64,000 nt of DNA, taken from the NCBI RefSeq assembly GCF_024700885.2, contig NZ_CP117016.1; one strand, written 5' to 3'. Origin of the DNA: Escherichia coli. GTDB lineage: Bacteria; Pseudomonadota; Gammaproteobacteria; Enterobacterales; Enterobacteriaceae. How positions within the stretch are numbered: position 1 is the first letter of the stretch; each line of letters starts with the position of its first letter. Position numbers and translations under genes: made by a program. Positions 33,516 to 37,344 of the stretch are shown piece after piece. The notes under the pieces are model-generated. The model ran no database searches and was not told where the DNA came from. It worked only from the letters and a program-made list of their open reading frames with translations.

Positions 33516-34409
33516 ATGAATGGAAAATTGCAAAGTTCGGATGTAAAAAACGAAACTCCGTACAATATTCCCTTATTGATTAACGAAAATGTGATCTCCA
33601 GCGGAATTTCTCTGATCTCGCTCTGGCATACCTACGCCGACGAGCATTATCGGGTGATCTGGCCGCGGGACAAGAAGAAACCGCTTATCGCCAACTCATG
33701 GGTTGCGGTGTATACCGTACAAGGATGTGGGAAAATTATTTTAAAGAATGGCGAACAAATAACTCTGCATGGCAACTGTATTATATTTTTAAAGCCAATG
33801 GATATTCACTCTTATCACTGTGAAGGTTTAGTCTGGGAACAGTACTGGATGGAATTTACCCCCACCAGTATGATGGATATTCCCGTCGGTCAGCAAAGCG
33901 TTATTTATAATGGCGAAGTTTATAATCAGGAACTCACCGAAGTTGCTGAATTAATTACTTCACCAGAAGAAATAAAAAATAATCTGGCAGTCGCTTTTCT
34001 GACGAAAATTATTTATCAGTGGATTTGTCTTATGTACTCAGACGGTAAAAAAGATCCACAACGGCGGCAAATTGAAAAACTAATTGCCACTTTACATGCC
34101 AGTCTGCAACAACGCTGGAGCGTAGCTGATATGGCTGCCACGATCCCCTGTAGCGAAGCCTGGTTGCGTCGTCTGTTTTTACGCTATACCGGCAAGACGC
34201 CGAAAGAATATTACCTCGATGCACGTCTGGATCTGGCGCTATCGCTATTAAAGCAACAAGGGAACTCGGTTGGCGAAGTCGCTGATACGCTCAACTTCTT
34301 CGACTCCTTTCATTTCAGCAAAGCCTTTAAACATAAATTTGGTTATGCGCCGTCAACTGTGCTGAAGAATACGGACCAGCACCCAACGGATGCCAGTCCA
34401 CACAATTAA
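33516..34409 (+). CDS. yidL: AraC-family transcriptional regulator YidL
   Basis: ORF 33486..34409; from [24 protein letters not shown] it is 297 aa with C-terminal AraC HTH. Confidence 0.9.
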
Positions 34410-35728
34410 CGTAACTCTGGCCAGTACGCTTTGTTGGCCTCCAGCAACTCATCCAGAATAGCTTTGGCGACCGCGGCGCTCGGTACCGTTTTCGACAACG
34501 TAATCGCCTGCCACAGGTGCTGATATGAACGCTGTTCCCAGGCGTCCACGACCAGTTTTTCCACCGCCACTTGCTGACTCATTAACCCTTTCTGAAACTG
34601 CGGGATATCGCCGACCACCAGTGGTTCTGGTCCGTTGTGCCCGACCAGACACGGGATCTCGACCATCGCTTCATCATCAAAGTTATGGATTGCCCCGTTG
34701 TTAGGCACAATCAGCAACATCCGCTCCTGAGTGTTGAAGGCAATTGCCGCCGCCAGATCGACGATGTATGACGCATGTTCGTCAATTTCCAGCTTGCCCG
34801 CCGCTGAATTTCCTGCCGCCGTAATGGCGCGGCAAGCATCGAAAACCTGTTTCTCGCGATGTTCCATCACCTCATTCGCGCGGGTATGTTCAGGGTTGGA
34901 ATGCTGAACGACATAATCCGGGAAGAGATAATATTTCAGATAGGTGTTCGGCAATGTATCCGGGTCCAGTGCCTGGACATCCCGCGCTTTTGCATAGGTG
35001 TCGTTCCAGCTCGCTTCAGTATGTGTATCTTGCTGCGGTGGAACATAACCGTGCTTAGAGACATATTGCCGCAGCTGGGGCATCAGGTCGTTGCCCTGCA
35101 AATCTTCAATTGATGTCCACCAGCCAAAGTGGTTCAGGCCGTAGTAGCGCACGCGCATCTGTTTGCGATCTTGCAGCCCAACAATTTGCGCCATCCGGCT
35201 TTCAATACCGATTGGCATGTCACAGATGTTGAGGATTTTCGCATTCGGGCGCAGACGACGCGTGGCTTCTGCGACAATGGCTGCCGGGTTGGAGTAGTTG
35301 AGCATCCAGGCATTTGGTGAATATTTTTCCATATAATCCACCAGTTCCAGGACGCCGCCAATGGAACGCATGCCGTACGCTATTCCGCCGGGTCCGCAAG
35401 TTTCCTGTCCAACAACGCCGTGGCGCAGCGGGATTTTTTCATCCAGTTCGCGCATCGGGTATTTGCCGACGCGGATGTGCGCCATGACAAAATCAACGTC
35501 GCTGAACGCCACTTCAGGATCGGTGGTGTAACTAAACGCAATGTCCGGCGCTTTCTCTTTAAGGATGACTTTACAGGCTTCAGCAATGACTTCCTGCCGC
35601 GCGCCATCGTTATCATAAAATTTCAGTGCACGAAGCGGGAAACGGTCCTGATTCGCCAGGAGCATCAACACGATGCCTGGCGTAAAGGTGCTTCCACCGC
35701 CTGCGACAACCACTGAGAATTTGGTCAT
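34406..35728 (-). CDS. glvA: 6-phospho-alpha-glucosidase (GH4 family; intact counterpart of the K-12 glvG pseudogene)
   Basis: 440-aa [27 protein letters not shown]... with NAD-binding N-terminus typical of GH4. Confidence 0.9.
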
Positions 35729-37344
35729 TATACTGCCTCCGTAATGGCAACATTTTCTGCTGATTGATGAGAATTAATTAAGCTATCGAGCTGTTCACGT
35801 AGCTGGGATACATGCAGACCAATGATCACCTGAATGGCATCGCCACTACGGAAGACGCCGTGCGCTCCCAGCTTTTTAAAGACTTCGTCATCCAGCGTTT
35901 GTGACATGTCATGCAGTGCAATCCGTAGACGCGTCGCGCAATTGTTGATGCTGGAGATATTGCCGACCCCGCCCAGGGCTTGCAGGATACCGGCAGCCTG
36001 ATCCAGCTCTTTTTTTGGCTCTGCCGCGGTGGTTTGGCCTCGCGAGGCTTTATATTCGGCTTTTGAGTAGAGTTTCACTTCCGCATCTTCACGTCCCGGC
36101 GTGCACATGTTGAACTGCAGAATCAGGGTGCGGAAAACCACGAAGTACAGCAGGGTAAAGCACAACCCAATGGCGATTTGGGTCAGCATCATATCCGCGT
36201 GGTTGCTGAACATCGGGATCCAGTTTTGCGGTAAAACCTGGTCAATCAAACCACCGCCCATGTTGCCCACCACACCAAAGAGATACATTACGGTCGACAT
36301 TGAGGCCGCCAGCACGGCGTGTACTGCAAACAGCAACGGTGAAATGAACAGGAAGGTAAATTCCAGCGGTTCGGTAATTCCCACCAGCATGGCGGTTAAG
36401 GTTGCGGGAATCAGCAAGCCCGCCACTTTTACCCGATTTTCCGGTGCGGCAGTGAAGTACATCGCTAAAGAAATGCCCACGGCACCAAAGATTTTTGAGT
36501 TACCGTGCAGGGCAAAACCGCCTTCCGGGAACAACGATTTCAGCGGCTCGGCGCTCAAACTGAACTCTTGCAGATGCTGCGCCCAGTACATCTGAATGCC
36601 GCCTTCAACAGCTGCCGGACCAAAGATAAACGGTCCGTAGATGAAGTGGTGTAAACCGGTTGGGATCAGAATACGTTCGAGGAAGGTGTAAACCCACACC
36701 CCAAGCGCACCCGCCGAACGCAGGAACGCTTGCAGAGATTCAATTCCCATTTGTACTTTTGGCCAGCCGAGCAAAGTCAGCCAGGCGCAGGGGATCATCA
36801 CCAGGAAGGCGATAATCACCACATAAGACGTCCCCTGGAAAATGCCGAGAAACACCGGCAGTTTTTTATCGAACAGGCGGTTATGCAACGCCGTCACAAT
36901 GCCGGAAATGATAATTGCGCCGATAATGCTGGTATCGAGAGTTTTAATCCCCGCCATCATTGTCAGCCCGCTACCAGCCACCGCGTCCTGAGTGAAATCG
37001 ACGCCGAAGTAGCTTCCCCAGGTCATTCCCATCGCGTTGATGAAATAGTTCCAGGTCAGGAAACTCACCATCACCGCCAGACAAGCACGCCCCTGCGCTT
37101 GCTTCGCAAGGCCAATGGGTAAACCGACAGCAAAAATCAGCGGCATATTACGGAATACCGTCCAACCGCCCTCTTCAATAATGTGTACGATTTGCGCGAA
37201 TAAACTGTTCGGATCGGTCAGTGATTCCCCGACAAACATCGGGTTTTGCAGCAAGATGGCAAGACCCACCACAATCCCGGCGAAGGGAAACAGCAGCACT
37301 GGCGTGAACATCGCGCCGCCAAAGCGTTGAATTTGACTGAGCAT
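35728..37344 (-). CDS. glvC: PTS alpha-glucoside transporter EIICB (fused counterpart of K-12 glvC/glvB)
   Basis: ORF 35728..37578 (TTG-initiated maximal frame); likely start at [31 protein letters not shown] membrane domain plus EIIB-like CATRLR motif. Confidence 0.88.

Follow-up and report, generated by a model that had tools for sequence, protein, structure and literature searches.

The window analyzed here, a 64,000-nt stretch of Escherichia coli DNA, carries at its glv locus a complete hydrolase gene, glvG, and a complete, fused gene for a sugar permease of the phosphotransferase system (PTS), glvCB. We read this locus as an intact, ancestral yidP/glvCB–glvG α-glucoside PTS operon that is orthologous to aglA/aglB and predicted to be biochemically competent, and we assign this reading a probability of about 0.85. 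That the strain would show a growth phenotype in standard laboratory culture is a further claim, for which we see somewhat less than an even chance. The initial annotation had proposed that the strain may retain a pathway of PTS uptake and hydrolysis. Intact open reading frames (ORFs), conserved motifs, purifying selection, and ancestral synteny now support that proposal, with function itself predicted from these features; because the genes are full length, the motifs kept, the proteins under purifying selection, and the arrangement ancestral, "retains" is the right word.

A Complete Hydrolase and a Fused Permease

The locus sits in a neighborhood ordered yidJ–yidK / yidL / glvG–glvCB / yidP / yidE / ibpBA. 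Its central features, in window coordinates, are these:

34406..35728, minus strand: glvG (ortholog of Klebsiella aglB), a full-length 440-amino-acid (aa) glycoside hydrolase family 4 (GH4) 6-phospho-α-glucosidase, NAD+/Mn2+-dependent by family; based on the ORF, Pfam, the PDB match, and RefSeq WP_000160110.1.
35728..37344, minus strand: glvCB (ortholog of Klebsiella aglA), a single 538-aa protein joining enzyme IIC and enzyme IIB domains (EIIC–EIIB) of the α-glucoside PTS subfamily; based on TIGR02005 and Pfam.
36238..36240, minus strand: glvCB codon 369, CAG (Gln) in the window and TAG in K-12.
34620..35127, no strand assigned: the glvG segment missing from K-12, 508 bp; based on the K-12 alignment.

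The initial annotation had described a full-length 440-aa GH4 6-phospho-α-glucosidase next to one fused EIICB permease frame, and both descriptions hold. The ORF listing for the window contains the 440-aa frame at 34406–35728 on the minus strand, followed by an open frame at 35728–37578 on the same strand. The mechanical ORF of glvCB extends upstream to a TTG at 37578, and the annotated ATG at 37344 yields 538 aa. This ATG is the supported start because a Shine-Dalgarno sequence (AAGAGGA) lies 7–8 nt upstream of it and GlvCB orthologs from other genera align over residues 1–538. The glvCB frame of the window has no internal stop codon and ends in an ATGA overlap with the start of glvG. A 9.4-kb stretch of the window shows 100% identity to the E. 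coli 1190 chromosome (NZ_CP023386.1). This strain was isolated from a dog in Scotland, and RefSeq calls the same two coding sequences (CDSs) in it: a 1323-bp "6-phospho-alpha-glucosidase" and a 1617-bp "PTS sugar transporter subunit IIB."

Profile searches placed the permease in an α-glucoside subfamily. GlvCB matches TIGR02005 ("alpha-glucoside-specific PTS IIBC") with 959.2 bits (cutoff 607.3), and residues 2–523 of 538 cover the entire profile (1–524 of 524). Models for β-glucoside permeases match over the EIIB domain only, at 40–48 bits against cutoffs above 600. The EIIC domain (PF02378, residues 10–346) and the EIIB domain (PF00367, residues 453–482) lie on one polypeptide, with a GITEP motif at 322 and the cysteine of CATRLR at 469. 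Pfam and NCBIfam profile searches detected no EIIA domain in GlvCB.

The hydrolase is equally complete. GlvG matches PF02056 (residues 6–184, 223.6 bits) and PF11975 (residues 195–415, 190.1 bits), both end to end. Its alignment with PDB entry 6DUX, a structure from K. pneumoniae ST23 (PMC9933657), is gap-free and 89.3% identical (392/439 residues, 916 bits). With B. subtilis GlvA (1U8X), it aligns over residues 3–439 at 750 bits (E = 6e-225), whereas the 6-phospho-β-glucosidases 1S6Y, 5C3M, and 1UP7 reach at most 212 bits; this gap in scores assigns GlvG to the α- rather than the β-specific GH4 enzymes. The protein carries the motifs GGGS (10–13), NICDMP (from 167, with C169 and D170), GLNHFGW (from 197, with H200), and TYLKYY (from 262, with Y263). 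We take GGGS, C169, D170, H200, and Y263 to correspond, at an offset of +2, to the NAD+ motif, Mn2+ ligands, and catalytic residues of GlvA (C171, D172, H202, and Y265).

Two Lesions Separate K-12 from the Window

According to the initial annotation, K-12 has a glvG pseudogene and separate glvC and glvB genes. The MG1655 record agrees, listing an 815-bp glvG pseudogene together with glvB (486 bp) and glvC (1107 bp) as separate CDSs (glvC, glvB, and glvG being b3683, b3682, and b4556). We aligned the window locus directly with the MG1655 locus, the comparison that the initial annotation had recommended for detecting shared lesions. The two differ by 59 substitutions over about 4.3 kb, or ~98.6% nucleotide identity outside the lesions. 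K-12 carries two lesions at glv, and the window carries neither.

In glvG, K-12 has lost 508 bp that correspond to window positions 34620–35127. In the intact allele, this segment is flanked by 8-bp direct repeats (AGTGGTTC) at 34620–34627 and 35128–35135, which is the signature of a deletion between short repeats. The segment codes for GlvG residues ~201 to ~370, Tyr263 among them; K-12 GlvG is interrupted directly after His200, and the frame then shifts.

The other lesion, one C→T substitution at window position 36240, converts Gln369 of glvCB from CAG to TAG. K-12 glvC and glvB share one frame (1107 + 24 + 486 = 1617 bp) with one TAG between the two ORFs, so the split is a nonsense mutation. 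A frameshift as the origin of the split is ruled out on the same grounds. The frameshifts that the initial annotation had ascribed to K-12 are thus found in glvG, downstream of the deletion, but not between glvC and glvB, where an amber codon interrupts a continuous frame. Apart from the stop codon, the window and K-12 permeases differ at one residue, P238Q.

K-12 "GlvB" begins at Met378, which, judging from the hydrophobic sequence around it, probably lies within the last EIIC membrane segment. The K-12 amber codon (7498–7500 of the retrieved K-12 locus; window 36238–36240) replaces a glutamine codon. The supE (glnV) amber suppressor is common among laboratory K-12 derivatives; in K-12 we would expect it to insert glutamine and restore wild-type GlvCB, with glvG still deleted.

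The K-12 split also bears on how the intact gene is named. The Prokaryotic Genome Annotation Pipeline (PGAP)/RefSeq annotation calls the entire fused 538-aa EIICB (window 35728–37344; 4429–6045 in the retrieved locus of strain 1190) "PTS sugar transporter subunit IIB." GlvCB residues 378–538 are matched by NF007255, an NCBIfam equivalog of 161 positions, and the name likely stems from this model having been built on the GlvB fragment that the K-12 nonsense mutation created. An artefact of a K-12 pseudogene would thereby have spread into the names of thousands of intact permease genes.

Purifying Selection and Ancestral Synteny

Intact alleles from different strains were compared by the ratio of nonsynonymous to synonymous substitution rates (dN/dS). 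At a synonymous divergence (dS) of ~0.04–0.08, dN/dS is 0–0.03 for glvCB and 0.03–0.07 for glvG; E8 and TW10598, a closely related pair, give 0.13 for glvCB (2 nonsynonymous vs. 5 synonymous differences). The GlvCB protein (WP_000952127.1) is identical in 1190, O157:H7 380-94, and TW10598 despite 20–28 synonymous differences, and GlvG differs from other intact alleles at 2–3 residues. Ratios of 0–0.07 indicate strong purifying selection and hence proteins that are used in nature.

To place the arrangement in a wider context, we searched GTDB species representatives with a degenerate DNA pattern encoding the peptide ANQDRFPLR, which returned 39 loci, and compared these with the window proteins by tblastn. 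The order yidE–yidP–glvCB–glvG–yidL–yidK, or the covered parts of it, recurs in Citrobacter, Klebsiella (K. oxytoca, K. michiganensis, K. grimontii, and K. spallanzanii), Raoultella, Kluyvera, Pseudocitrobacter, and Enterobacter. Most of these loci have the permease as a single frame of ~538 aa and a GH4 protein of ~440 aa; two loci align partly. Across genera, tblastn identities are 88–92% for GlvG, 79–85% for full-length GlvCB, and 72–82% for YidP. In the E. albertii type strain, where part of the locus was covered, they reach 96% for GlvG and 94% for GlvCB. In K. pneumoniae ATCC 13883, they are 89% and 81%, which identifies glvG and glvCB as orthologs of aglB and aglA.

Conserved order, a fused EIICB, and a full-length GH4 enzyme across genera together argue that the intact state is ancestral. 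On this comparison, the arrangement in the window is vertically inherited, and the K-12 state and the absence of the locus from B2-type genomes are derived losses. An origin on a plasmid or other mobile element is ruled out: All 5,426 of 5,426 matches in complete E. coli genomes are chromosomal, the GC fraction is an ordinary 0.51–0.54, and synteny is kept across genera.

Loci from outside the enterobacteria also matched the ANQDRFPLR pattern. In four Lactobacillus loci (L. kimbladii, L. melliventris, and two more), a GH4 gene (58–60% identity) adjoins an EIICB gene (47–49%), with the hydrolase upstream of the permease, the reverse of the enterobacterial order. A match in an Elusimicrobia metagenome-assembled genome is probably due to chance, as none of six window proteins matched there.

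Distribution of Intact and Decayed States in E. coli

The state of the locus was counted among the 5,426 complete E. coli genomes. The glvCB segment is present in 4,274, and the 500 bp lost by K-12 are kept in 1,652 (30%); with 4,274 genomes having the former and only 1,652 the latter, about 2,600 carry the glvG deletion. Among the matches listed, these deletion genomes uniformly align in two pieces that cover 86% of the query and span 2,891–2,892 bp. A further class of ~1,150 genomes matches over the first 77 query bases only, a B2-type absence of the locus. This class fits Table 5 of Touchon et al. 2009, where glvC appears among the genes absent from phylogroup B2 (PMC2617782). Since the intact form is common (~30%), K-12 is the derived case, and the strain studied here is not special.

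The two K-12 lesions have different distributions. The exact K-12 41-mer with the amber codon occurs in only 348 genomes (K-12 derivatives, among the matches listed), vs. 3,744 genomes with an exact 41-base match to the CAG allele of the window; most glvG-deletion genomes therefore lack the amber codon. By this count, ~2,300 genomes combine the 508-bp glvG deletion with no K-12 amber codon. NS-NP030, the one such genome checked, has the glvG deletion and a full-length 1617-bp glvCB (1121–2737 of its retrieved locus) with few amino-acid changes; K-12 and NS-NP030 glvCB differ by 13 synonymous and 3 nonsynonymous substitutions. Perhaps the permease persists longer than its hydrolase; a recent origin of the glvG deletion is another possibility.

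Other decay routes remove more of the locus. One B2-type genome has 49 unrelated bases (5078–5126 of its retrieved locus) in place of window positions 34377–38307, a segment of 3,931 bp comprising the 3′ end of yidL, glvG, glvCB, and yidP up to its last ~50 bp. Survival of this yidP remnant identifies the state as a deletion. The yidL gene of this genome is shortened to 867 bp and has a new C terminus. In TW10598, an IS200/IS605 element (a tnpA pseudogene plus tnpB; 797–2443 of the retrieved locus) takes the place of yidI–yidL. In 1332KP, a 439-aa chimeric ORF (3030–4349 of the retrieved locus) joins GlvG residues 1–283 to the C-terminal tail of TnpB, and this chimera is annotated as an "RNA-guided endonuclease TnpB family protein."

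E. coli presents three common states: intact, glvG deleted with glvCB open, and absent. These could reflect niche-specific selection in which intact lineages such as O157:H7 and 1190 use a gut or dietary α-glucoside (isomaltose, isomaltulose, or other sucrose isomers) and a glvCB without hydrolase is kept for sensing or for transport coupled to another enzyme, an interpretation that we consider unlikely.

Control Region and Regulators

Three further features of the window flank the two structural genes:

37345..37640, no strand assigned: divergent glvCB–yidP control region with a Shine-Dalgarno sequence, an inverted repeat, and a CRP-like site; regulatory roles are putative.
37641..38357, plus strand: yidP, a GntR/HutC-type regulator and probable repressor of glvCB–glvG; based on Pfam PF00392 and PF07702.
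33516..34409, plus strand: yidL, an AraC-family regulator; a neighbor, probably of the yidJK module.

The gene yidP lies upstream of glvCB in divergent orientation and encodes a GntR helix-turn-helix domain (PF00392) followed by a UTRA domain (PF07702). It adjoins glvCB in every genus whose flank was covered, and it was deleted together with glvCB–glvG in the B2-type genome. Adjacency across genera and codeletion make YidP the likely regulator, and its domain family suggests that it probably represses glvCB–glvG. In the glvCB–yidP intergenic region, an 11-nt inverted repeat (AACACATCTTT/AAAGATGTTTT) at 37547–37573 is a candidate operator. Strain E8 (NZ_CP104526.1; 3541–3800 of the retrieved locus) has a yidP annotated as frameshifted beside intact glvCB and glvG, and it could be a natural derepressed variant.

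The yidL gene is convergent with glvG, and their 3′ ends overlap by 4 bp. Where glv and yidP are deleted, as in the B2-type genome, yidL persists; where they are kept, as in 1332KP and TW10598, it has been lost with yidI–yidK. Being kept or lost independently of glv, yidL behaves as a member of the neighboring yidJK module and most likely belongs there rather than to glv. The initial annotation had named yidP and yidL together as regulators; the adjacency and codeletion of yidP favor this for the former, whereas yidL tracks yidJK.

Proposed Pathway and Relation to Known Systems

From their families, the two proteins would act in sequence. GlvCB, a membrane EIIC fused to an EIIB with a phosphorylatable cysteine, would take up an α-linked glucoside, with methyl-α-D-glucoside, isomaltose, and isomers of sucrose (palatinose and turanose, for example) as likely substrates, and would phosphorylate its glucosyl moiety at O-6. 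Phosphoenolpyruvate would supply the phosphoryl group through EI, HPr, and EIIA-Glc (Crr); the last is invoked in trans, as no EIIA is encoded at the locus. GlvG, with NAD+ and Mn2+, would then split the 6-phospho-α-glucoside into glucose-6-phosphate and the aglycone, and YidP would probably repress the operon until an inducer is present.

Several known systems frame this proposal. Among B. subtilis genes, the maltose PTS glvA (malA)/glvC (malP) has the same GH4 and EIICB subfamilies and is more distant. Its regulator is the RpiR-type GlvR, as opposed to the GntR-type protein at the window locus. The glv genes of E. coli K-12 occupy the same chromosomal locus and differ by the 508-bp glvG deletion, CAG369→TAG, and P238Q. 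Klebsiella aglA/aglB share orthologous genes, gene order, a fused EIICB, and the lack of an EIIA (structures 6DUX and 6DVV); the flanking yidP and yidE recur in other Klebsiella species, and yidL and yidK also in K. spallanzanii.

Heterologous expression in K-12 has been described for both the Klebsiella and the Bacillus genes. As summarized in a paper citing Pikis 2006 and Thompson 2001 (PMC5309279), aglA and aglB of K. pneumoniae enable E. coli K-12 to use isomaltose and other α-glucosides through its endogenous EIIA-Glc. The same source reports that heterologous aglA–aglB or B. subtilis glvA–glvC supports crr-dependent growth of K-12 on isomaltose and related sugars, and it notes that the K-12 homologs were already deemed cryptic or truncated, citing Reizer 1994, Thompson 2001, and Pikis 2006. 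The expression or substrate range of the E. coli allele may differ from that of aglA/aglB, given that E. coli isolates were palatinose-negative in one small study.

Evidence against a Functional Operon and Alternative Explanations

Several observations weigh against our reading of the locus. No NCBIfam model passes for GlvG, the best being an alpha-galactosidase subfamily at 179 bits against a cutoff of 486; its subfamily was therefore taken from the PDB matches, and the GH4 subfamily assignment rests on 89% identity to the Klebsiella enzyme. The window does not extend to crr, the gene for the proposed phosphoryl donor. A CRP-like site with 2 mismatches at 37523–37538 is a candidate activator site and only a lead, as the window-wide count of 25 such sites equals the chance expectation of 25.6. 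A scan of 34200–37800 for σ70 consensus promoters found none, against 3.3 expected by chance. Enzyme activity, transport, and growth of the window allele are themselves predictions.

The phenotypic record points in the same direction. One VITEK 2 study (PMC9631374) reported negative palatinose and α-glucosidase results throughout for an isolate of O157:H7 and 55 further E. coli, in a short test with one substrate on ungenotyped isolates. The O157:H7 genomes that we sampled carry the intact locus. Together, these results suggest that intact ORFs do not simply yield the phenotype of Klebsiella; the operon could be under tight repression or respond to a different natural inducer. A literature search for phenotypes of E. 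coli with intact glv found no direct study, the VITEK data being indirect. An ST131 phenotype-array paper mentions a palatinose signal in one isolate, and PMC3938415 makes no mention of glv.

The alternative that survives best is that an operon with intact genes stays silent under ordinary conditions, "cryptic" in the manner of bgl, asc, and chb, so that a phenotype would need inactivation of YidP or the natural inducer. The missing σ70 consensus promoter favors this explanation, as do the VITEK 2-negative isolates, including O157:H7, when ~30% of genomes and the sampled O157:H7 are intact; the frameshifted yidP of E8 beside intact glvCB–glvG is what one would expect if loss of a repressor were tolerated or selected. 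However, dN/dS of 0–0.07 over a dS of ~0.04–0.08 speaks for selection and hence for expression somewhere in nature, and the phenotype data come from a brief single-substrate assay of isolates without genotypes. We hold silence under ordinary conditions to be a serious possibility, if not the one we favor. Being a matter of expression, it does not conflict with the biochemical account of an intact operon.

Alternatively, the ORFs could be open in an allele that a missense or regulatory change has already rendered non-functional, a pseudogene in the making. The locus is dispensable and has been lost repeatedly in E. coli, by the 508-bp deletion, the amber codon, the 3.9-kb B2 deletion, and IS200/IS605 truncation. 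Yet GlvCB is identical in 1190, O157:H7 380-94, and TW10598, GlvG is only 2–3 residues removed from other intact alleles, all checked motifs are present, and the Klebsiella alignment is gap-free, which makes a defective allele very improbable.

Arbutin, which the initial annotation had listed among the substrates to try, is a β-glucoside and reflects a historical label for glvC ("arbutin-like" or "arbutin specific PTS permease") that the TIGR02005 and PDB scores contradict. Although Touchon et al. 2009 still carry that older annotation (Table 5; PMC2617782), a system carrying arbutin or another β-glucoside is hardly credible when the permease passes TIGR02005 (959 bits, cutoff 607) and matches β-glucoside models at 40–48 bits over EIIB alone, and when GlvG scores 916 and 750 bits with 6-phospho-α-glucosidases and no more than 212 with β-specific enzymes.

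Implications for E. coli Carbon Metabolism

An intact, ancestral α-glucoside operon is an ordinary finding: K-12 carries the pseudogene status in its own annotation, over 1,600 complete genomes have the intact form annotated, and the Klebsiella ortholog is well studied. K-12 is a poor reference for the glv locus, a conclusion of little import beyond annotation hygiene. If the operon is active, ~30% of E. coli, O157:H7 included, would have an α-glucoside catabolism that K-12-based metabolic models omit, and the locus would be relevant for strain-specific models and for fermentation of isomaltose-containing, starch-derived feedstocks.

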